A stretch of 40,873 nucleotides of DNA from a virus (taxonomy: Duplodnaviria > Heunggongvirae > Uroviricota > Caudoviricetes). The notes under the pieces were generated by a model. The model made no database searches and was not told the origin of the DNA. It worked only from the letters and a program-made list of their open reading frames with translations. Below are positions 3,491-28,299 of the stretch, in pieces (the stretch's first letter is position 1; each line of letters begins with the position of its first letter). A program made the translations under genes and the position numbers. The stretch lies in the IMG/VR virus record IMGVR_UViG_2609460344_000022; one strand, given 5' to 3'.

Positions 3491-5547
3491 GATTTATCAC
3501 CTCCGAAATTTTCAAGCCTGTTGGCAATCATGATGGCGATATCAGGGATTGCTGGCGCTGTGGCTATACATGCGGGGTTGGCGCACAAACCATAGACGGC
3601 TGCAATCACGAGCTGTCTTTTCCAGTCGAGAATTTCTGGTTCTGAATCAGCCTTATCGTCGGGCGCATTGTTGCCCTGAGCATTCCGGGCAACTGCCTCG
3701 AGTTCATGAGTTGTATCAGCGGAACTTTCCAGGACATCCGCTTGTGCTGAGTTCTCTTCAGCAGATGTGCCGTTTTCTCCAAAAATTTCAGCGTAAGTTT
3801 CATCTCCTATTACCGGACCGCAGTCAGGGCAGTTGCCCCCACCAGTCTGAGCACAGACGCGGCAGGATTTTTCCAGCTCCGGTTGTGCTACTGGCTCTGG
3901 TTGTTGCTCTGCTGGTCCGTTTTGTTGCGTATCCGGGCTGTTTTGTTCCGCTTCTGGCTCATTTTGTTCCACTTTGGATTGATTCTGGTCTTCAGTGTCG
4001 CGAGTCTGGATCCCCTTCACCCACTTCGGGTCGGTTGGGTCGCTGATACCTTCAACGAATTCTCCGCGAGAAGCCGCCAGTAATTTGTCGGCATCGACTG
4101 GATTTTTTGGGGGGATGTTTTCCCTGGCTTTATTGAGTTCCTCCCTCAGTTCCTGGTATTTCGTTTCTACAGATGAGACATTTTCCAGTGATTGCGTGTC
4201 CTCATTATGTTTAACTGGAATTTCTTCCACTGATTCAGGCGCTGCCTGTTCATTAGCCATTGTGTCCGATGTTTGTTGCTTTTCTTCATCGCCATGTTTT
4301 CCTTCTGCTGTTCCGCGCTGCGGCATCGGTGCTGATGAGCGACCGCAGGCAATTTCCACGATTTCCGGATCCGGGTTAGCGTGATCGGTTTCGGTCAACA
4401 CTTTGTTGAGATATTCAGTCACGCGTGCCGGGATGGCCTCAATGCCGATTGGTGCTTCTTTCACGGAAGCCACCACAATGGCGCGGGAATAATCCAGCCC
4501 ACCGGGCATGGCGATAAATTTGTCGCGAAAAACAGAAAAGGGCGGCTTATTCTCTGACACGATTTCTTCAACGCGTTTTGCGTGTGCTGGGTGCAGGTTA
4601 TAAATATCCACATCCATTGAACGGGCCAGAACGCCGGTGGCTACATCTCGTGCGAGTGATGTCTTATCATGTTTGAATCCTTCACCACGATCGGTAATAT
4701 TTCCGCCGCCAGCGTTAGCACCGGAAGGCGTACGGGTAATGCCTGAAACATAATTTCCGTTCTGCCATTCTTTTGTCAGCAGGCCCTGATCAAGGTAGTC
4801 AGTTTTCATCCAGGTGGAAATGAACTTGTCGAATTCAGCCGGGCTGATGCGATGATTTGCAGAGTGGGGGAATGCTTTCCCTACAGATTCAGCCAGGCGG
4901 CTAAGGTGATAATTCGTCAGCTTATCCAGCTCTGGATGTGAACGCACAGCAGTAAGCAGGCTCTGAAGGTAACTATCTTCTGTGTCCATCTCCAGACGGA
5001 TCACATTATTACGTTGTTCTGGTGTGGCGTGATGCCGGTATTTTCCATCTTTATCCTTGCTAAAGAAGAAGAGGTGAAGGAAACGATGGGTAAGACTGAG
5101 AGTGGCGACGGGAATTTCACAGTCAATACAGTCATCGTCGCTGTCTGTGGATTCGATTTTCTCCGCATTACCCGGAACAGCTCCGTCTGGGTCATCGTTG
5201 CCACCGTCAGCCGTTGTGGCATCTTCACCGTTGATGTTGTCATCGGAGGGTATAGCCATCATGGTGATGCCATCGTTACCGCCTTTTTCATAGCGATTAC
5301 AGAATTCGGTATCAAACACTCCTTCCGGTGGAAGGTCATTTACGACGGGCAAATGAACGCGAACAGGTTTTTTAAAGTCATCTTCATCGTAGCCCGCATC
5401 GTCAATCGCAACAGCACCACGAGAGATTGCAATGGATAATTTTTTCGCCTCAGCCCAGTAAAAACCGCCTTTAATGCCGAGGCGTTTTCTTACCTTGTCA
5501 TTTTTTGCTTCGTAATACAGTGGGTAAACTTGTTTATCAGTGCTCAT
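3487..5547 (-). CDS. Large acidic hypothetical protein (686 aa; start trimmed to ATG 5547 with GAGG SD)
   Basis: Long ORF overlapping gam start by 4 nt (ATGA); acidic low-complexity linkers, CxxC...CxxC zinc-ribbon-like motif ([17 protein letters not shown]); upstream part of track ORF (to 5835) overlaps the preceding gene and lacks an SD. Confidence 0.6.
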
Positions 5548-6940: not shown

Positions 6941-7300
6941 TTAGCGACTTCGGAACATCGAGTAATAAATAACGTCCATTACGGTTCTTAAACAACAATC
7001 AGTGGGCTTGATGTTGTGCTTTTCAAGCTCACTTGCCATCACTTCCATTATTCTTGCACTTACACGAATTATTTGGTGGCTGTAAGCGACGCAACTATCG
7101 CTGATATTGCTGTTTATTTCTATTGCTTCATTTTCACCATTAGCACTAACTTCAGATGTGCTGTTTTCATTTTCCTGTATCAGTGCTGCTTCCGCCATCC
7201 TGATGCGTCCCAGCGTTGAGGAATTTGGGCTAAGTTGATAAACCTGTCGGGCATCTTCCAGAAGCAGGGCGATAATGTGCTTCAGTTCTGTTTCGTTCAT
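6941..7300 (-). CDS. Hypothetical protein
   Basis: 119-aa ORF downstream of the zinc-ribbon protein in the N operon; no recognized motif. Confidence 0.45.
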   Translation of the reverse strand: MNETELKHIIALLLEDARQVYQLSPNSSTLGRIRMAEAALIQENENSTSEVSANGENEAIEINSNISDSCVAYSHQIIRVSARIMEVMASELEKHNIKPTDCCLRTVMDVIYYSMFRSR

Positions 7301-7331
7301 GGTTAATTCCGTGAGTTGCGATTTATTAATA

Positions 7332-8045
7332 TCAGGAGGTCAGTTCTTTAAGTTTCTGAACCGCTTTATTCATTTCATCCATGCAGTCGATGAACTCGTC
7401 CAGTTTAAGCTGCATTTTTCCGGCGGCCTGAAGAATTTCAAGTTTTAAGGGCGCGAGTTTTTTGTTGAATACATCATCTTCCTGACGTTTTTTCTCCGCA
7501 ATTTCGGCGGCTTTCAGCAATTCTTCTGCCTGTTTTCTGAGTGTTTCTGGTGAAGGTGAAACTACTTTGAGGTTATTCATTTCAGATTCCTGTTGTTGCA
7601 GAATTAATTTATTACATTCTCTGCGCAAGCGTTTCATTGCAGATTCGCACTTCTTACAATAAATGGCTCTCCCGTCACGTTTGCTGGCATCTGAATAAAA
7701 ATCATCGACTGATTTTGTCTGCCCGCATCTGGTGCATAATTTTGACTGAAGGTCCTTAATGATGGTCACGTTTCCTTCCCGTTTGGGATATCCATATTTT
7801 TTGTGGCGGAAAAAGGTTACTCCGTTACCAGAACCTTCTTTTCTGACCTTAAATACAATGATGCTTTCCCGTTTATCGATAAAATCGATGAGCTGGTTTC
7901 TCTCCTTGCCTGACAGTTCGGCAAATGTCTTAACTTTTTTAGTAACTTCCGTAAGTCGAACGCCATCAGGCATTTTTTCAACGAAGTTTTTAATCTCTGC
8001 AAGTGGACGCCATAATTTTTGCGGCAAAACTGAAGGCGTTGTCAT
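7332..8045 (-). CDS. Hypothetical zinc-ribbon / coiled-coil protein
   Basis: 237-aa ORF immediately downstream of N-like gene (3-nt gap); CTRCGQ...CKKCES zinc-ribbon motif followed by Lys/Glu-rich coiled-coil C-terminus. Confidence 0.55.
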   Translation of the reverse strand: MTTPSVLPQKLWRPLAEIKNFVEKMPDGVRLTEVTKKVKTFAELSGKERNQLIDFIDKRESIIVFKVRKEGSGNGVTFFRHKKYGYPKREGNVTIIKDLQSKLCTRCGQTKSVDDFYSDASKRDGRAIYCKKCESAMKRLRRECNKLILQQQESEMNNLKVVSPSPETLRKQAEELLKAAEIAEKKRQEDDVFNKKLAPLKLEILQAAGKMQLKLDEFIDCMDEMNKAVQKLKELTS

Positions 8046-18050: not shown

Positions 18051-18368
18051 TCATGATATTACCTGGATTCCGTTTTTCTCTACGACTGAAAGAAGGCGAA
18101 GAGCGGCACCTCCCGGCCGTTTTACACCACGTTCCCAGTCTGATATCAGGTTTTTACTGACGTTGAGGTATCTGGCAAAAACAGGTTGAGACAGATGCTC
18201 TCGTTCGCGCAGTGCACGGATCCTTTCCGGAGACATTACCGGCGCTGGCTGGAGACAAGTTTCATCGAATTCTCGCATAGTCTGTTTCGTTACTGCGCCG
18301 ATATCATGAAGCGATTCCATCATTTCATGTACGGATGCAAGCGCATCACTGCGGTAATTTTTACTCAT
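18051..18368 (-). CDS. HTH (XRE-type) antitoxin, HigA/MqsA-like C-terminal HTH
   Basis: 105 aa; C-terminal 'REREHLSQPVFARYLNVSKNLISDWERGVKRPGGAALRLL' resembles the antitoxin HTH pattern; start ATG overlaps stop of upstream toxin remnant. Confidence 0.6.
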   Translation of the reverse strand: MSKNYRSDALASVHEMMESLHDIGAVTKQTMREFDETCLQPAPVMSPERIRALREREHLSQPVFARYLNVSKNLISDWERGVKRPGGAALRLLSVVEKNGIQVIS

Positions 18369-18730
18369 TGGGTACCTCCGTAAACTGACCCTGTAGAATC
18401 AGTTGTGCCAGTTGTTCATCTGTTAGATTGAGTACGTGAGGAGCCCCTTCCGAAATGCACTTTCCTCAGTAGCGGTTATATTTTCACGTTCATTTTTTGC
18501 GTATGCATATACGAAAAAGGCCCTTGTGCCGACGCGATAGAAAATGATTGTGCGATAACCGCCAGATTTGCCGCCACCGACTCGTGGCAGACGTTGCTTG
18601 ATAACGCCGTTACCCAGGTTTGCTGAGATAAGCCCGTTATCAGCCTGTTTAACAATTTCGCGCAGTGATTGGTCGGATATTTTGTTTTGCGTGCAAATCG
18701 CTCAAACCAGGCGTTTTTAAAAATGCGCAT
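18361..18730 (-). pseudogene. RelE/ParE-superfamily toxin disrupted by two frameshifts
   Basis: Frame 1: MRIFKNAWFERFARK; frame 2: ...SLREIVKQADNGLISANLGNGVIKQRLPRVGGGKSGGYRTIIFYRVGTRAFFVYAYAKNERENI...; frame 3: LNLTDEQLAQLILQGQFTEVPNE*; first shift at an A-rich tract (GCACGCAAAACAAAATAT). Confidence 0.6.
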
Positions 18731-18797
18731 TTTTTGTTCCGTTATTAATGTATAACACATAGTGTTACATTGCGTAGGGATCTGCAATGCCATCAGT

Positions 18798-18908
18798 TTG
18801 ACAACGTCGCGTGTTCGGGGCTATATTCCTCACGCGCCAGCAAAACCTGGCGTCGGGATTAGCACCCCGGATATCGAAACGGTGCATAACCGCGCTGGCG
18901 GTTTTTTT
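18798..18908 (+). ncRNA. Promoter + ~75-nt structured RNA + intrinsic terminator (copy 1)
   Basis: TTGACA-N18-TATATT (18798-18827); hairpins CGCCAG-CAAAAC-CTGGCG and AACCGC-GCTG-GCGGTT followed by TTTTTTT (18888-18908). Confidence 0.45.
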
Positions 18909-19072
18909 ATGCGCTAAGCACAGTCACATTCGCGATTTATGGCGGGCTGTGTGGGGGAGCCGAAAGGCTCGCCGGATGTTTCGACCGGTAGTGCTAACCC
19001 CGCACAGTTCGCCACCACGATGATTAGCACCTGACGGTGGCGAGGTAAAAATTATCGAAACGCGAGGTCATT

Positions 19073-19738
19073 ATGGCTGTTCAAATTTCTGTCGAAAACC
19101 TTTCCCCTGTTACCTATAACCAGATCCCCGTAATTACTACTGAACTGTTGGCTCACCTTTACGGAACAAAAATCAAAAACATTTCTGATAACTTTCTGAA
19201 CAACACGACGCGATTCATGCCCGGAAAGCATTACTTTAAAATTGAAAAAAACGAATTACGCGAGTTTAAGAACAGACCCGAAACAATCGGGTTAGTTGGT
19301 AAAAATGCCCGCTCCCTCATCCTCTGGACAGAACGCGGCGCAGCCCGTCACGCAAAAATGCTCGAAACCGATCGGGCGTGGGAGGTATTCGAAAAACTGG
19401 AAGACTGCTATTTCAGCCAGGGAAAAACAGCACCAACCGAACAGCAGCCGCAGATTCAGCCACAATTCACAGCCGAAGAAATCATCCTCCTTTGCTACAT
19501 GCAGCTCTGGATGGAAAAAGCCCAGGACATCAGCAAACACCTGTATCCCATTATGAAAGAGCTGAACTCCTCATACACGAACAAGCTGTATGACATTGCG
19601 TTTGAGACCATCTACATGGTGACGAAGAACAGAGACGCGCTACTGAGGGAGGTAACACGTCTCGACATGTCAAGTTCCGTTATCCAGCGGGCCATGCCAA
19701 TGCTGAAAAGCCTGCGGGCAAGACAATTTGAATTCTGA
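19073..19738 (+). CDS. ORF6N-domain antirepressor-like protein (paralog 1)
   Basis: 221 aa; N-terminus '[20 protein letters not shown]...[21 protein letters not shown]' shared with paralog at 20657 and typical of the ORF6N antirepressor N-terminal domain. Confidence 0.6.
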   Translation: MAVQISVENLSPVTYNQIPVITTELLAHLYGTKIKNISDNFLNNTTRFMPGKHYFKIEKNELREFKNRPETIGLVGKNARSLILWTERGAARHAKMLETDRAWEVFEKLEDCYFSQGKTAPTEQQPQIQPQFTAEEIILLCYMQLWMEKAQDISKHLYPIMKELNSSYTNKLYDIAFETIYMVTKNRDALLREVTRLDMSSSVIQRAMPMLKSLRARQFEF

Positions 19739-19792
19739 AACTAAAGGAGCTTCGGCTCCTTTTTTGTTGGGAAAATCCAGTGAGAGGGAATA

Positions 19793-20203
19793 ATGAACCA
19801 GACTATCTTCCTCCGAAGTAAGCAGCAGCAACAATTCGCCATTAACGCCATCCTTGCAACAACTCTCGATAAAGACAAACCCGTTACGATCCGCATCACC
19901 GATTACAAGCGGAATCTCGATCAAAATGCCAAATTTCACGCGATGGTCGCTGATATCTCCCGACAGGTTCAGTGGTGCGGCAGATGGCTAAAACCAGAAC
20001 AGTGGAAAGTTTTGTTAATCAGCGGTCATGCCGTGGCGACAAAACAGGAAGCTGATGTTTTGCCTGGTCTTGAAGGTGAATACGTCAATATCCGCGAAAG
20101 CAGTGCGCAGATGAGCGTGAAGCGTATGGCAAGCCTGATTGAGTACACAACTTCCTGGGCTGTGGAGCAGGGTGTCAGATTTACCGACAGGAGGTATGAA
20201 TGA
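19793..20203 (+). CDS. ninB: NinB (Orf-family recombination protein)
   Basis: 136 aa; resembles recalled lambda NinB (…RNLDQN.K…DISRQV.W.GRWL..E.WK…). Confidence 0.8.
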
Positions 20204-20382
20204 GACGACAGCGACGAAGCATTACCGATATAGTCTGTGAAAACTGCAATTACCTTCCAACGAAACGTTCCAGAAATAAACCCAGGCCAATCCCAAAAGA
20301 ATCTGACGTTAAAGCCTTCAATTACACGGCTCACCTGTGGGATATCCGGTGGCTAAGACATCGTGCGAGGAAAACAAGGTGA
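20200..20382 (+). CDS. ninE: NinE-like small protein
   Basis: 60 aa, [60 protein letters not shown]; matches my recollection of the NinE family; 4-nt overlap with ninB. Confidence 0.55.
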
Positions 20383-20497
20383 TTGACGTGATGATTTATT
20401 CGGGGCTATATTCCTCACGCGCCAGCAAAATCTGGCGTCGGGATTGGCGTCCTGGATAGAGACCGCGACAGATACACGCCGCGAGCGTGTTTTTTAT
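20383..20497 (+). ncRNA. Promoter + ~75-nt structured RNA + intrinsic terminator (copy 2)
   Basis: TTGACG-N18-TATATT (20383-20412); hairpin CGCCAG-CAAAAT-CTGGCG; terminator ACACGC-CGCGA-GCGTGT + TTTTTTATT (20474-20499). Confidence 0.45.
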
Positions 20498-20656
20498 TGT
20501 CGTATGCACGCGCACATCTGAATTATGGTGGGCTGTGTGGGGGCGGAGAGATCCGCGCCGGTCGGTTTCCCGGTTACGCCAACCCTGCACAGTTCACCAC
20601 CAGACGATTGGCGTCGTCGGTGGTGAGTTATTAAGAAACCACTCGAGGGCGTCATT

Positions 20657-21340
20657 ATGACAACTCAAATCTCTGTTGAAACACTCTCCACGATTACTTA
20701 CAAGCAGATCCCCGTTATCACTACCGAACTTTTGGCGCACCTTTACGGCACAGAAGCTATTCGTATTCGCCAGAATCACCACGAAAACAAAGGTCGTTTC
20801 ATTGAGGAAAAACACTTCTTCAAACTTGAAGGTGAAACTTTACGTGAGTTCAAGCACAGAGTAGCTTTTAACTACTCTGTGAAAATTGCCCGTAACGTTC
20901 GCTCCCTCATCCTCTGGACAGAACGAGGCGCAGCCCGTCACGCCAAAATGCTAGAAACCGATCAGGCGTGGGATGTGTTCGAAAAACTGGAAGACTGCTA
21001 TTTCAGCCAGTGCGAGAAAAATACTGGCAAACAAGAGAAGAAGCCCAACGGGCTTTCCGCAAAAGAAACAGACAGCCTTGTATGGCTGTGGGATTATGCC
21101 AACCGCTCACAGGCATTGTTCCGTGAGTTGTATCCCGCATTAAAACTGATTCAGTCTGGCTATTCCGGCATATGCCACGACTACGGCTATGAGTTCTCGT
21201 ATATCATCGGGAGGGCGAGGGGCGTTTTAATTAATCACACGCGGGATATAGATATTTATGAGCCTGACGGGCCGACGAACCTTCTGGCATGGGAAAGGCT
21301 TAAGAACAAAGAGTTGCCGCCTTCACTGCATCGCTACTGA
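20657..21340 (+). CDS. ORF6N-domain antirepressor-like protein (paralog 2)
   Basis: 227 aa; N-terminal ~120 aa highly similar to paralog 1, C-terminus divergent. Confidence 0.6.
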
Positions 21341-21408
21341 CAATTGACAACTTAACAAACCCAGCTTCGGCTGGGTTTTTTATTGCTGAATTTTCAATAT
21401 GAGAGGAC

Positions 21409-22137
21409 ATGACAATGAATGAGCTGATAAATAGCAGCATCATCAAAATGACCAGCATTGAAATCGCTGAGTTGGTGGGGAGTCGTCCAGATAACGTAAA
21501 AATATCAATAGAGCGCCTGGCTGAATCTGGAGTTATTCAACTTCCTGCATTGCAGGTTTTCGAAAAAATCAATAACTTAGGACTGCGCCGTAGTGTCGAG
21601 GCTTACGTCTTCGAAGGCGAACAAGGTAAGCGAGACAGCATTATTGTCGTCGCCCAATTGTCGCCGGAATTCACCGCTCGTCTTGTTGACCGTTGGCGAG
21701 AGCTTGAAGGGGCAACCGCGAAAATACCACAAACCTTTTCTGAGGCATTGCGCCTTGCGGCCGACCTTGAAGACCAGAAGGCTGAACTGGAGAAACAGCT
21801 TGCTCTCGCAGCACCTAAAGTTGAGTTTGCCGATCGAGTTGGCGAGGCCAGCGGAATTTTGATTGGAAACTTTGCAAAGGTTGTTGGTATTGGTCCAAAC
21901 AAACTGTTTGCGTGGATGCGCGATCACAAAATCCTTATTGCTTCAGGTTCCCGGCGCAATGTGCCAATGCAGGAATATATGGATCGCGGCTATTTCACAG
22001 TGAAAGAAACAGCGGTCAATACAAATCACGGAATACAGATCTCGTTCACCACAAAAATCACCGGGCGTGGTCAACAGTGGCTGACCAGAAAGCCGCTCGA
22101 TAACGGAATGCTGAAAGTAACAGGGGAGGCTGCTTAA
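21409..22137 (+). CDS. Rha-family regulator / antirepressor (KilA-C/ANT C-terminal domain)
   Basis: 242 aa; N-terminal 'MTSIEIAELVGSRPDNV' Rha-like HTH; C-terminal '...EFADRVG...KVVGIGPNKLFAWMRDHKIL' antirepressor-type domain. Confidence 0.65.
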   Translation: MTMNELINSSIIKMTSIEIAELVGSRPDNVKISIERLAESGVIQLPALQVFEKINNLGLRRSVEAYVFEGEQGKRDSIIVVAQLSPEFTARLVDRWRELEGATAKIPQTFSEALRLAADLEDQKAELEKQLALAAPKVEFADRVGEASGILIGNFAKVVGIGPNKLFAWMRDHKILIASGSRRNVPMQEYMDRGYFTVKETAVNTNHGIQISFTTKITGRGQQWLTRKPLDNGMLKVTGEAA

Positions 22138-22786: not shown

Positions 22787-22980
22787 TGAATGCTAAAATT
22801 CAAACGATACCTGAATTACTGATCTGCACCAGGGGAAATCAGACAGAAGTCGCCAGAATACTGAACTGCAATCGTGCTACAGTCAGAAAATACATTGATG
22901 ATAAAGATGCGAAAAAGCACGCCGTCGTCAATGGCGTCCTTATGGTTCATCGCGGATGGGGTAAAGATACTGATGCGTGA
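22783..22980 (+). CDS. ninH: NinH-like protein
   Basis: 65 aa; '[42 protein letters not shown]' resembles recalled lambda NinH. Confidence 0.7.
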
Positions 22981-23407
22981 TATCCGGCAGGTTCTTGAGC
23001 GCTGGGGGGCATGGGCGGTAAATAACTATGAGGATGTTACATGGTCGCCCATTGCTGCCGGATTTAAGGGACTGATCCCCGAAAAAGTAAAATCACGTCC
23101 ACAGTGCTGTGACGATGATGCGATGGTGATATGCGGGTGCATAGCCCGCCTTTACCGGAACAATCGCGATCTGCATGACTTGCTGGTTGATTACTACGTG
23201 TTGGGGGAGACGTTCATGGCGCTGGCACGGAAACATGGGTGCTCTGACACCTGTATAGGTAAACGCCTTCACAAAGCGGAGGGGATTGTTGAAGGCATGC
23301 TGATGATGCTGGGAGTGAGGCTTGAGATGGATCGGTATGTTGAGCGTGAATTGCCGGGAGGGAGAAGCTCTGTATTTTATCAGCGAAAAAATAGTTTACG
23401 ATCGTAA
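22973..23407 (+). CDS. Q: Late-gene antiterminator Q (phage 21/82 type)
   Basis: 144 aa from ATG 22973; '[49 protein letters not shown]' matches recalled Q82 family. Confidence 0.8.
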
Positions 23408-23690: not shown

Positions 23691-24172
23691 TCCGTTCAAC
23701 GGGAATGTTACATACCTCACAATTAAGTCAGTTGAATGTTGTCTGCCCGGATGAGAATTTGTTAGAAAAAACTGCATGGTGAATCCCCCTGAGCGGAGGG
23801 GCGACTGGTGACGGTATAATCTCTGATTATCAAAACGAGAATGACGCGGGTTTAGTGGCACCGGGCTGAACTCACCGGGAGGCACCCGGCACCATGCAAT
23901 GGCACATAGCGCCACTCTCCAGCCCCTCTCCGGAGGGGCTTTCTTATGGACAAAAAAGCCCGCGCTGGGAGACGCGGGCGGCAAGGAATGAACAATGAAA
24001 CGTGAAGTAATATTTCAGCTGGCGAATAATACCCCATAGTAATCACTCTGCGCAACTGCGCGACCTTTTTCGAATTGCGGGCTGTAGTCTCCCTTCTGCC
24101 ATTGTCCTGTAACTTCCGGACTTCAGCCCGCTCCTTATTTTACTCACAATATTATCCCGGCCGGGAGGATTC

Positions 24173-27840: not shown

Positions 27841-28299
27841 ATGAATCGTGTGCTGTATGGCGTGCTTATTGTCCTGCTGCTTGGTTGTGGATCGCTGTGG
27901 CTGGCAACAGACCATTACCGTGATAACGCCATCACCTACAAAGAGCAGCGAGATGATGCGAAGACAAAACTCAGCCAGGCGAACGCCACCATTGCTGACA
28001 TACAGCAGCGCCAGCGTGATGTTGCTGCACTCGATGCCAGATACACCAGGGAGCTTGCTGATGCTAACGCGACTATTGAAAGTCTCCGTGCTGATGTTTC
28101 TGCTGGGCGTAAGCGCCTGCAAGTCGCCGCCACCTGTGCAAAGTCAACGACCGGAGCCAGCGGCATGGGCGATGGAGAAAGCTCAGGACTTACAGCAGAT
28201 GCTGAACTCAATTATTACCGTCTCCGAAGTGGAATCGACAAGATAACCGCGCAGGTTAACTACCTGCAGGAGTACATCAGGATGCAATGCCTCGATTAA
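27841..28299 (+). CDS. Rz: Rz i-spanin
   Basis: 152 aa; N-terminal TM helix, coiled-coil periplasmic domain; follows endolysin. Confidence 0.8.
   Translation: MNRVLYGVLIVLLLGCGSLWLATDHYRDNAITYKEQRDDAKTKLSQANATIADIQQRQRDVAALDARYTRELADANATIESLRADVSAGRKRLQVAATCAKSTTGASGMGDGESSGLTADAELNYYRLRSGIDKITAQVNYLQEYIRMQCLD
28094..28246 (+). CDS. Rz1: Rz1 o-spanin lipoprotein (embedded in Rz, +1 frame)
   Basis: MFLLGVSAC lipobox followed by Pro-rich segment (KSPPPVQSQRPEP); fully nested in Rz. Confidence 0.7.
   Translation: MFLLGVSACKSPPPVQSQRPEPAAWAMEKAQDLQQMLNSIITVSEVESTR

Follow-up and report, generated by a model that had tools for sequence, protein, structure and literature searches.

The immI operon of phages P1 and P7 (c4-icd-ant1/2) includes the RNA C4 (Citron & Schuster 1990, as cited in PMC7313666 and PMC12197685). 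The P1 annotation (NC_005856), which we took as the reference, gives the order a1, b1, C4, a2, and b2, with b2 over the Shine-Dalgarno sequence of icd; hairpin B carries b' (CACUAAC) in its loop, and a' (CUGUCAA) is single-stranded. In Gifsy-1, the promoter of the small RNA IsrK drives the transcription of anrP, the translation of which is off and is activated more than 100-fold by IsrK provided in trans; binding of IsrK to Hfq has also been reported, and a stable processed RNA, STnc1160, occupies the position of C4 (PMC4825925). In the conformer assay of the same study, the substitutions C162U and C159U compensate G28A and G31A, and IsrK carrying either G28A or G31A fails to activate the wild-type target in trans (PMC4825925). 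Judging from the Rfam numbering, we place G28A and G31A in a1, and C162U and C159U in a'. The authors of that study consider seqA of P4 to be a structural homologue of IsrK (PMC4825925). The reviews that we found handle IsrK and C4 as separate systems (PMC12197685).

We analysed a window of 40,873 nucleotides, the whole of a tailed-phage record (IMGVR_UViG_2609460344_000022), in which two antirepressor-like genes are each preceded by a structured leader. This leader is a known phage P1-type RNA immunity module, made of an IsrK/a1b1 RNA, a C4 RNA, and the target sites of C4, and it is present in two copies (Table 1). The Rfam matches and the alignment settle this identity. The covariance-model search of both copies that the initial annotation had proposed as a check placed all three families above their gathering scores: isrK (RF01394) with 74.3 bits in module 1 and 75.5 in module 2 (gathering 50), C4 antisense RNA (RF01695) with 75.1 and 66.7 bits (gathering 45), and, by a small margin, c4-a1b1 (RF03163) with 47.4 bits (18821-18873) and 50.5 bits (20406-20458) for a gathering score of 46.7. 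The same models give 68.8 bits (C4) and 51.0 bits (a1b1) in the immI region of P1, so that the scores of the window copies are on par with those of P1, and also with those of a Gifsy-1-type locus. In both modules the c4-a1b1 match is upstream of the C4 RNA, and C4 lies in the antirepressor leader on the same strand as the gene, with the ant genes beginning 54 and 53 nt past the Rfam C4 match.

Table 1. Features of the two modules and their genes. Positions refer to the whole window.
Feature	Position	Strand	Sequence or description	Evidence
Module 1
Sigma-70 promoter	18798-18827	+	TTGACA, 18-nt spacer, TATATT	11/12 consensus matches
Transcription start (predicted)	near 18834			Rfam isrK model begins at 18834
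IsrK-like short RNA	18834-18908	+	carrier of a1/b1	Rfam isrK, c4-a1b1; fold prediction
IsrK-1 hairpin 1	18834-18853	+
IsrK-1 hairpin 2	18854-18869	+	a1 in loop
a1	18859-18865	+	UUAGCAC
b1	18874-18880	+	UCGAAAC
IsrK-1 intrinsic terminator	18888-18908	+	AACCGC/GCGGTT and T-run	terminator prediction
C4 antisense RNA	18935-19019	+		Rfam C4; fold; covariation
Mature C4 (predicted)	~18941-19016			ends by homology with P1 annotation
C4-1 closing stem	18940-18956 with 18998-19014	+	17 bp
C4-1 hairpin A	18957-18970	+
C4-1 hairpin B	18971-18989	+	b' in loop
b'	18978-18984	+	GUUUCGA
a'	18991-18997	+	GUGCUAA, single-stranded
a2-presenting hairpin	19009-19043	+	TCGCCACC/GGTGGCGA	covariation
a2	19024-19030	+	UUAGCAC, hairpin loop
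b2 site (b2 to Shine-Dalgarno)	19055-19067	+
b2	19055-19061	+	UCGAAAC	directly upstream of ant1 Shine-Dalgarno
ant1 Shine-Dalgarno	19064-19067	+	GAGG
ant1	19073-19738	+	antirepressor-like, 221 aa, start codon 19073	Pfam ORF6N and P22AR_C
Terminator after ant1	19743-19762		followed by T-run	terminator prediction
Module 2
Sigma-70 promoter	20383-20412	+	TTGACG, 18-nt spacer, TATATT	10/12 consensus matches
IsrK-like short RNA	20419-20495	+		Rfam isrK, c4-a1b1; fold prediction
a1	20444-20450	+	UUGGCGU, loop of hairpin 2
b1	20459-20465	+	GAGACCG
IsrK-2 intrinsic terminator	20474-20495	+	ACACGC/GCGTGT and T-run	terminator prediction
C4 antisense RNA	20521-20604	+		Rfam C4; fold
Mature C4 (predicted)	~20527-20601			ends by analogy
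b'	20563-20569	+	CGGUUUC
a'	20576-20582	+	ACGCCAA
a2-presenting hairpin	20594-20626	+	TCACCACC/GGTGGTGA	covariation; fold
a2	20608-20614	+	UUGGCGU
b2 site (b2 to Shine-Dalgarno)	20635-20649	+
b2	20635-20640	+	GAAACC	upstream of ant2 Shine-Dalgarno
ant2 Shine-Dalgarno	20645-20649	+	GAGGG
ant2	20657-21340	+	antirepressor, 227 aa, start codon 20657	Pfam ORF6N and P22AR_C
Terminator after ant2	21357-21378		followed by T-run	terminator prediction

The proposal that a functional RNA governs antirepressor expression by an antisense logic like that of P1 is thus supported, since both the Rfam scores and the order of the parts equal those of P1, and the relation between the two is one of homology, which is stronger than the analogy originally drawn. 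Other parts of that description need to be replaced. What had been presented as a single cis-acting leader consists of two RNAs, the short terminated IsrK/a1b1 RNA and C4, together with two target sites. The sar RNA of P22, with which the locus had been compared, is an antisense small RNA that limits ant and is transcribed on the opposite strand, so as to run over the ribosome-binding site of that gene; the comparison does not apply here, where a promoter scan of 18700-21450 found no promoter-like site on the minus strand. Nor does a simple attenuator, also invoked, explain the three-way covariation described below.

The initial annotation had described 18798-19072 and 20383-20656 as homologous, each followed by an ORF6N gene. 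Alignment of the two regions gives 82% column identity over an aligned span of ~300 nt, a repeat search recovers them as direct repeats ~1585 nt apart, and both downstream genes carry the Pfam domains ORF6N and P22AR_C, the two being 48% identical. What is duplicated is an entire cassette, which runs from the promoter to the terminator that follows ant (roughly 18798-19765 and 20383-21380); this extent had been overlooked, as had the promoters and the bipartite sites a1/b1, a'/b', and a2/b2. Both cassettes belong to a 933W-like lambdoid prophage of Escherichia coli, where they are inserted in its nin region. The identical stretch is also found in E. coli ML35. A third antirepressor gene is found in the window at 21409-22137. 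The FORC_069 record matches the window at 100% across 18780-21400 only and is out of register elsewhere. We therefore dropped it as a coordinate proxy for the whole window, and the gene names taken through it are approximate away from that interval. Control by LexA, in the style of the Gifsy antirepressors, was considered and rejected: the CTGT-N8-ACAG box is absent near both promoters, and its sole match in the window, at 27895, is consistent with chance.

To align homologous leaders was another of the checks proposed at the outset. Our alignment holds 75 sequences; distinct homologous leaders number 69. The compensatory pattern is present in the alignment: bases are paired in 100% of 3112 cells, compared with 91.4% after shuffling and 36-43% when partners are slid, and the covariation score is 0.280, a value reached by none of 500 shuffles, compared with 0.126 after shuffling. 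Pairing is likewise seen in 100% of cells among the 69 distinct leaders, and RNAalifold finds the same helices when no structure is supplied. The stems that had been listed are all real. The two terminator stems (AACCGC/GCGGTT and ACACGC/GCGTGT) both resemble intrinsic terminators, the helix of the downstream stems is 99.3% paired in the 69 distinct homologues, and the long-range pair GCTGTGTGGGGG/CCCCGCACAG falls within the stem, of 17 bp, that closes C4. In C4, two hairpins are enclosed by this long closing stem; the fold is backed by covariation (closing stem 99.9% paired, with five pairs changed on both sides; all five pairs of hairpin A changed on both sides), and it is stable, with minimum free energies of -49.1 kcal/mol (z = -5.8) for C4-1 and -44.5 kcal/mol (z = -3.9) for C4-2. 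The region of the a2 hairpin in module 2 (20590-20679) has a z-score of -2.4. In module 1, the 5' arm of the a2 hairpin, UCGCCACC, also serves as the 3' arm of the closing stem of C4, so the two helices are alternatives, and alignment column 194 has two covarying partners, column 124 in the C4 stem and column 227 in the a2 hairpin. For copy 1, folding predicts a conformer with a1b1 paired in cis to a'b' at -109.4 kcal/mol and another with the IsrK hairpins and a folded C4 at -108.1 kcal/mol; the two are nearly isoenergetic in these predictions and correspond to what the IsrK study calls structures A and B (PMC4825925).

Covariation had been offered as evidence on the basis of the stems. These do covary, but the informative part is that linking the recognition segments to their targets, and is not confined to the listed stems. 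The sites a1, a', and a2 covary three ways across the 69 distinct leaders, in seven classes that are 99.8-100% paired. A perfect complement to a' is found at a1 in 69 of 69 leaders and at a2 in 68 of 69; a' and a2 are 99.8% paired, with five of eight pairs compensatory, and one class carries a 1-nt insertion at a1, a', and a2 alike. The sites b1, b', and b2 also covary three ways, in 13 loop classes, in none of which b' has a better partner than the class's own b1 and b2 (mean duplexes with b1 and b2 of -8.5 and -9.9 kcal/mol for own partners, and of -3.9 and -4.6 kcal/mol for those of other classes). In all classes b2 adjoins or covers the Shine-Dalgarno sequence. The P1 b2 covers its Shine-Dalgarno, whereas those of the window, which form duplexes of -8.4 (module 1) and -7.3 kcal/mol (module 2) with b', stop 2-4 nt short of it without overlap, which makes occlusion plausible but not certain. 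The only joint a and b sites in the 40.9-kb window are each module's own a1b1 and a2b2, and a search for further C4 targets elsewhere in the prophage, e.g., at the third antirepressor gene, found none.

The two modules have different a and different b sequences, and each C4 is therefore expected to control mainly its own ant. The two copies are probably largely non-cross-reacting. Their b sites nevertheless have a GUUUC/GAAAC core in common, and the duplex of the b' of C4-2 with the b2 of module 1 reaches -7.2 kcal/mol, so the modules may not be fully independent.

We consider it highly probable that each copy is a self-contained RNA immunity cassette of the P1 immI type, in which C4 represses and IsrK acts as a decoy. 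The sequences show to which families the elements belong, how they are arranged and folded, and that their pairing sites covary three ways; RNA processing, repression by C4, polarity through Rho, and the role of IsrK as a decoy are here inferred by transfer from P1 and Gifsy-1. The promoter, strong and probably constitutive, would mostly yield transcripts that end at the intrinsic terminator, i.e., an IsrK-like RNA of ~75 nt in which b1 comes after a hairpin with a1 in its loop. Transcripts that read through would carry C4, which RNase P may release as in P1: the P1-like 5' context (UAU/GG) is conserved, as is the tRNA-like stem with its ACC 3' overhang. C4 would expose b' as a hairpin loop and leave a' single-stranded. 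It would pair with a2, which the next hairpin presents in its loop, and with b2, which either lies directly upstream of the ant Shine-Dalgarno or overlaps it, and would thereby block ribosome binding; Rho would then probably terminate the untranslated message, as in P1, keeping the antirepressor off in the lysogen. The sites a1 and b1 would compete with a2 and b2 for C4, both within the read-through RNA itself (in cis) and from the short IsrK RNA (in trans), so that more IsrK would relieve repression, for which Gifsy-1 provides the experimental precedent. Not all the data from Gifsy-1 fit a repressing C4 and a decoy IsrK: a mutation of a1 in cis raised basal expression, and co-expression of the orf45/STnc1160 region did not relieve the toxicity of IsrK (PMC4825925).

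The model proposed for Gifsy-1, taken strictly, holds that the read-through mRNA is locked in an inactive fold, that IsrK opens orf45's ribosome-binding site in trans, and that ant is turned on by translational coupling; C4 would then not be a repressor in its own right. It has experimental support in Gifsy-1 (PMC4825925) and accords with the two near-isoenergetic conformers of copy 1. Moreover, 67 of 69 leaders conserve, at the 5' arm of the C4 stem, the AUGG that provides the AUG of orf45, and leaders of the type of locus L058, which is Gifsy-1-like, have a 45-codon ORF that ends in ATGA on the start codon of ant. Yet this coupled form occurs in only six of the 69. The corresponding ORFs of the window have 31 (copy 1) and 33 codons (copy 2) and stop ~36 and ~30 nt before the start of ant, which makes coupling by overlap impossible. 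Over the 69 leaders the ORF varies from 14 to 45 codons, sometimes runs in frame into ant or has TTG for AUG, and changes frame and peptide at the b' loop; the model also leaves the covariation of a2/b2 with a'/b' unexplained. For the window, we regard it as unlikely. Much less likely still is a purely cis-acting leader or attenuator, in which alternative hairpins would set termination or translation with no RNA acting in trans. The leader does contain a leaky intrinsic terminator, and the 3' arm of C4 can pair with its own 5' arm or with the downstream segment, as the covariation of column 194 with both indicates. RNAalifold also suggests a weak GU-rich helix at the start codon of ant (19037-19042 with 19069-19074), but we rejected it as a sequestering element because its pairs are nearly all G-U, copy 1 disrupts it, and two of the six pairs are lost in 7 and 13 sequences, respectively, out of the 75. 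Three complementary copies of each recognition sequence, in 7 a and 13 b classes, point instead to an antisense RNA with two targets, C4 is a discrete and very stable fold, and both C4 in P1 (PMC12197685) and IsrK in Gifsy-1 (PMC4825925) work in trans. Finally, that the conservation reflects a small leader peptide is scarcely credible: 67 of 69 leaders do have an ORF that opens with ATG in the 5' arm of C4, and SPA-tagged orf45 constructs are described for Gifsy-1 (PMC4825925), but ORF length, frame, and peptide are not conserved, substitutions are compensatory in RNA stems, and the IsrK authors, as cited in PMC12197685, found orf45 conserved in nucleotides and not in amino acids. For the window, we rejected both a leader peptide under conservation and an upstream ORF coupled to ant.

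Of 5426 complete E. coli genomes, 1688 (~31%) have the leader, at up to six places per genome, as do many Stx phages, and nothing is annotated under it in RefSeq and in most of the phage records inspected. The kind of element is already described, and the value of its recognition here is mainly one of annotation. To recognise the C4/IsrK module explains how antirepressor genes, including those of Stx phages, probably stay silent, and predicts which prophages can cross-induce. The novelty is modest: a single 933W-like prophage has two cassettes of unlike specificity, and a and b classes are reassorted. In this sample the 7 a classes and 13 b loops occur in 21 combinations, and the recognition sequences, few in number at both a and b, seem to be shuffled among lambdoid prophages. 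If so, there would be many immI-like specificities that set which co-resident or superinfecting phages induce each other. We see roughly even chances for a joint reading in which the modules are non-cross-reacting RNA 'bar codes', reassorted among lambdoid phages, and IsrK and C4 form one circuit. Each C4 would then silence its own antirepressor only and each IsrK free its own C4 only, giving the prophage two separately addressable anti-immunity switches, and the literatures on IsrK and C4 would describe a single circuit in which one promoter yields both the antisense RNA and the decoy of that RNA.

Among the described systems, P22 sar resembles the present one in that a small RNA curbs the synthesis of an antirepressor in a temperate enterobacterial phage, whereas here the regulator lies upstream and the complementary segments are on the same strand. 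The CI RNA of P4 (seqA, seqC) is likewise a small RNA processed out of its operon's leader, and it pairs with two complementary sites, one located upstream and the other downstream of it, but its outcome is the premature termination of transcription of replication genes and not the control of an antirepressor (PMC4825925). The likeness to P1 immI extends to the succession of promoter, a1, b1, C4, a2, b2 at a ribosome-binding site, and antirepressor gene, and to the fold of C4, with b' in the loop of hairpin B, a' single-stranded before the 3' arm, and the ACC 3' overhang; as in the heteroimmunity of P1 and P7, a few bases in a and b set the specificity. Unlike in P1, no icd-like upstream gene is found here and b2 fronts ant itself, the antirepressors are ORF6N/P22AR_C proteins and not Ant1/2, the host is a lambdoid and not a plasmid prophage, with the cassette in the nin region, and the element occurs twice in one genome. 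With isrK-orf45-anrP of Gifsy-1 the match is one of identity of the element: the Gifsy-1-type locus L058, with the order isrK, C4, ant, isrJ, isrI, aligns along its full length with the window copies, and both have an ORF6N-type antirepressor downstream, a short terminated RNA with read-through, and two predicted conformers. The window lacks the 45-codon orf45 over the start of ant, its shorter ORFs being uncoupled. Module 2 has the a site UUGGCGU in common with the Gifsy-1-type locus and a different b site, and module 1 differs from it in both. In the alignment, orf45 of Gifsy-1 overlaps the C4 RNA, and by our own mapping helix b-I of the IsrK study is the a1:a' pairing, which together suggest one simpler reading of both systems.

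The covariance-model search with both copies that the initial annotation had proposed, run as a scan of the entire window against Rfam at curated thresholds, matched the same three families in identical order in each leader (table below). These describe a short terminated RNA (IsrK/a1b1) carrying the target mimics a1 and b1, and an antisense RNA (C4) whose segments a' and b' are complementary to the sites a2 and b2 upstream of the ant gene. The C4 matches scored 75.1 (copy 1) and 66.7 bits (copy 2), with phage P1 c4 in between (68.8), and the a1b1 matches (47.4 and 50.5) were near that of P1 (51.0). The leaders are homologous, as the annotation held, with 82% column identity, and a repeat search placed them as direct repeats ~1585 nt apart. 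Each does precede an ORF6N-domain gene (Pfam ORF6N and P22AR_C, 19073-19738 and 20657-21340), the products Ant1 and Ant2 being 48% identical. The terminator stems first noticed are intrinsic-terminator-like sites, the downstream stem is a hairpin, and the long-range pair is a portion of a 17-bp stem (folding z = -5.8 and -3.9). The duplication itself stands, but its size was underestimated: the repeat extends from the promoters to the terminators after ant, and therefore comprises two entire cassettes, which ninB and ninE separate.

Features of the two duplicated cassettes (a dash-joined pair gives first and last nucleotide)
Feature	Module 1	Position	Module 2	Position
Sigma-70 promoter	near-consensus, 11/12 matches	18798-18827	near-consensus, 10/12 matches	20383-20412
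c4-a1b1 (RF03163), Rfam		18821-18873		20406-20458
isrK (RF01394), Rfam		18834-18908		20419-20495
a1	UUAGCAC	18859-18865	UUGGCGU	20444-20450
b1	UCGAAAC	18874-18880	GAGACCG	20459-20465
Intrinsic-terminator-like site		18888-18908		20474-20495
C4 antisense RNA (RF01695), Rfam		18935-19019		20521-20604
b'	GUUUCGA	18978-18984	CGGUUUC	20563-20569
a'	GUGCUAA	18991-18997	ACGCCAA	20576-20582
Downstream hairpin		19009-19043		20594-20626
a2	UUAGCAC	19024-19030	UUGGCGU	20608-20614
b2	UCGAAAC	19055-19061	GAAACC	20635-20640
Shine-Dalgarno	GAGG	19064-19067	GAGGG	20645-20649
ant start codon		19073		20657
Homologous terminator 3' of ant (repeat comparison)		19739-19765		21354-21380

The terminators after ant also show compensatory stem changes between copies. 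Within the ant genes, a 111-nt patch (19310-19420 vs 20900-21010) is 95% identical while its coding flanks are ~79% identical, as if the cassettes had undergone gene conversion or recombination with each other. Nine of 5426 complete E. coli genomes, FORC_069, NCCP15648, and ML35 among them, contain the region 18780-21400 at 100% identity.

Of 80 IMG/VR loci that encode Ant1 relatives, nearly all have the leader directly 5' of the gene, and the invariant IsrK hairpin pattern matches at least 120 stretches of viral contig DNA. We aligned 75 leaders (69 distinct) drawn from these two sources and evaluated on them an Rfam-type fold plus the a1:a' pairing. All of the 3112 cells (100%) are paired, against 91.4% in shuffled alignments and 36-43% with slid partners, and both sides have changed in 15 pairs. 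The covariation score was 0.280 (vs 0.126) and was reached by none of 500 shuffles. Compensatory changes affect 5/5 pairs of C4 hairpin A, 5/8 of the a1:a' helix, which has no unpaired cell, and 5/8 of the a':a2 helix, which is 99.8% paired. The compensatory pattern seen between the two copies recurs across the 69 distinct homologous leaders. The a sites fall into seven classes, one of which has an extra nucleotide in a1, a', and a2 alike. Because the b sites contain indels, we scored them by duplex energy: for 13 of 13 b' loop classes, their own b1 and b2 were the best or joint-best partners (means of -8.5 and -9.9 kcal/mol, vs -3.9 and -4.6 for others). Reassortment has brought the a and b classes together in 21 combinations. 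Without a supplied structure, RNAalifold recovered both IsrK hairpins and the entire C4 fold.

RNAalifold also proposed a GU-rich helix in which the a2 hairpin pairs through its 3' arm (19037-19042) with the ant start-codon region (19069-19074); copy 2 has an equivalent. Such a helix would tie start-codon masking to C4 folding, but its pairing is interrupted in copy 1 and it shows scant informative covariation. Three loci (L085, L090, and L167) have a post-leader sequence that does not align to the ant start region, and L167 combines a1 and a' of one class with a2 of another; these look like recombinant or decayed modules.

In the window, the only bipartite targets of each C4 are the two in its own module. 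Own a duplexes reach -9.0 and -10.3 kcal/mol, whereas C4-1 on the a sites of module 2 reaches -4.9 (via G-U pairs) and C4-2 on those of module 1 -1.8. Own b duplexes (-7.3 to -8.8) are closer to the cross values (-4.6 to -7.2), which are raised by the GUUUC/GAAAC common to the b sites of both modules. The a sites differ at the equivalents of Gifsy-1 G28 and G31; single substitutions at these residues eliminated trans action in Gifsy-1 (PMC4825925). From these energies and differences, we expect mostly independent control of the two modules, with possible leakage via b. Among the matches listed, the other tandem case is a phage contig (L093) with modules at 3946-4147 and 7208-7406, which share the a class (UUGGCGU) and differ in b class.

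The window is an E. coli lambdoid prophage with int, exo/bet/gam, a CI-like repressor, cro, cII, replication genes, three toxin-antitoxin loci, a nin region, Q, lysis genes, and 933W-like virion genes (approximate annotation). A hok/sok type I locus occupies 16783-17107 (Rfam sok, 110.3 bits, 16783-16957; 70-aa ORF at 16895-17107, hokD in the matching RefSeq record). A second locus (17272-18000), just 5' of module 1, has a small ORF ahead of a Fic/Doc-family toxin ORF (17506-18000; Pfam Fic/DOC; death-on-curing family in RefSeq). On the minus strand (18051-18793), an HTH antitoxin-like gene (18051-18368) adjoins a RelE/ParE-like toxin gene that appears split over two frames, with the N-terminal 'MRIFKNAWFERFARK' in ORF 18476-18793 and 'GGKSGGYRTIIFYR...' in the other; the window and FORC_069 differ by an indel in this region, and a frameshift in the gene is possible. 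The longest ORF of the gene points away from module 1, starting 5 nt from the -35 box of that module. After module 2, a third antirepressor-type gene (21409-22137) combines a weak Rha-like N-terminus with a KilAC ANT domain; the Rfam scan found no C4/IsrK leader for it, nor did the site search of the window find a or b sites. Directly 3' of the Q antiterminator gene (22973-23407, approximate annotation), Rfam STnc100 matches at 23746-23951 (165 bits), a position that would fit a short terminated late-promoter transcript like lambda 6S RNA or StxS (PMC7547250). It is not followed by stx genes; a gene for a SASA-family carbohydrate esterase is annotated next (approximate annotation).

The element is of a known kind, and the initial finding is correct but not new. 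Its families were described in P1/P7 in 1990 (as cited in PMC7313666 and PMC12197685), as Rfam C4 and a1b1 in 2010 (PMC2864571), and as IsrK in 2016 (PMC4825925). Of 5426 complete E. coli genomes, 1688 contain homologues of the leader. The Stx phages Min27, YYZ-2008, and Stx2a_F451 have ant leaders that match 94% of the copy 1 leader at ~99% identity. What is added here is modest: one prophage carries two heterotypic cassettes, a and b classes are documented to reassort, and IsrK/orf45 is mapped onto a1b1/C4.

We favour the P1 scheme for the window cassettes. C4 would arise from read-through transcripts, probably be trimmed to ~76 nt, by homology, and pair with a2 in its hairpin loop and b2 adjoining the Shine-Dalgarno sequence, blocking ant translation; a1 and b1, whether in cis or on the short IsrK RNA, would compete with these targets for C4. 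For Gifsy-1, PMC4825925 reports that IsrK activates in trans and that single a1 substitutions abolish activation, which fits such competition; some of the Gifsy-1 data, such as the higher basal expression of cis a1 mutants, do not fit a simple decoy model. Translational coupling through orf45, the upstream ORF in the Gifsy-1 model, is ruled out in the window because the corresponding ORFs (31 and 33 codons) end short of the ant start codon, by ~36 and ~30 nt; the length, frame, and peptide of this ORF are unconserved across the family.

One locus (L058) carries isrK, C4, ant, isrJ, and isrI, the same arrangement as the isrK-orf45-anrP-isrJ published for Gifsy-1 (PMC4825925). The 45-codon ORF of this locus overlaps the ant start codon through its terminal ATGA. 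Since the orf45 AUG lies in the AUGG that opens the C4 stem on its 5' side, orf45 and C4 overlap. Residues G28 and G31 of that study fall in a1 by Rfam numbering, and by our mapping their partners C162 and C159 would lie in a', which would make helix b-I the a1:a' pairing. The two near-equal conformers of copy 1 (a1b1/a'b' paired in cis, -109.4; IsrK hairpins with folded C4, -108.1 kcal/mol) match structures A and B of Gifsy-1. The Gifsy-1 study also describes STnc1160, a stable RNA that is processed and maps downstream of IsrK, and likens the system to P4 CI/seqA, with no mention of P1 C4 in the sections consulted. IsrK and c4 are still handled separately in a 2025 review (PMC12197685), and they are annotated side by side in an APSE phage paper.

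In phage P1, a hairpin (ACCGCA...UGCGGU) followed by AUUUUUG lies between b1 and c4 (L083, 8277-8343), in the place of the IsrK terminator of the window. Rfam isrK does not reach its gathering score there; given the hairpin, P1 may make a short a1b1 RNA as well. The annotated P1 immI order is promoter, a1 (UUGACAG), b1 (GUUAGUGC), C4, a2, and b2, with b' (CACUAAC) in the second-hairpin loop of C4 and a' (CUGUCAA) single-stranded ahead of the 3' arm. P1 b2 covers the icd Shine-Dalgarno sequence, and in several classes of the aligned leaders b2 likewise lies directly over a Shine-Dalgarno sequence. The analogy with P1 was therefore right: the window copies carry matching parts at matching places and in the same order, with comparable Rfam scores, and they retain the UAU|GG 5' context and ACC overhang of P1 C4.
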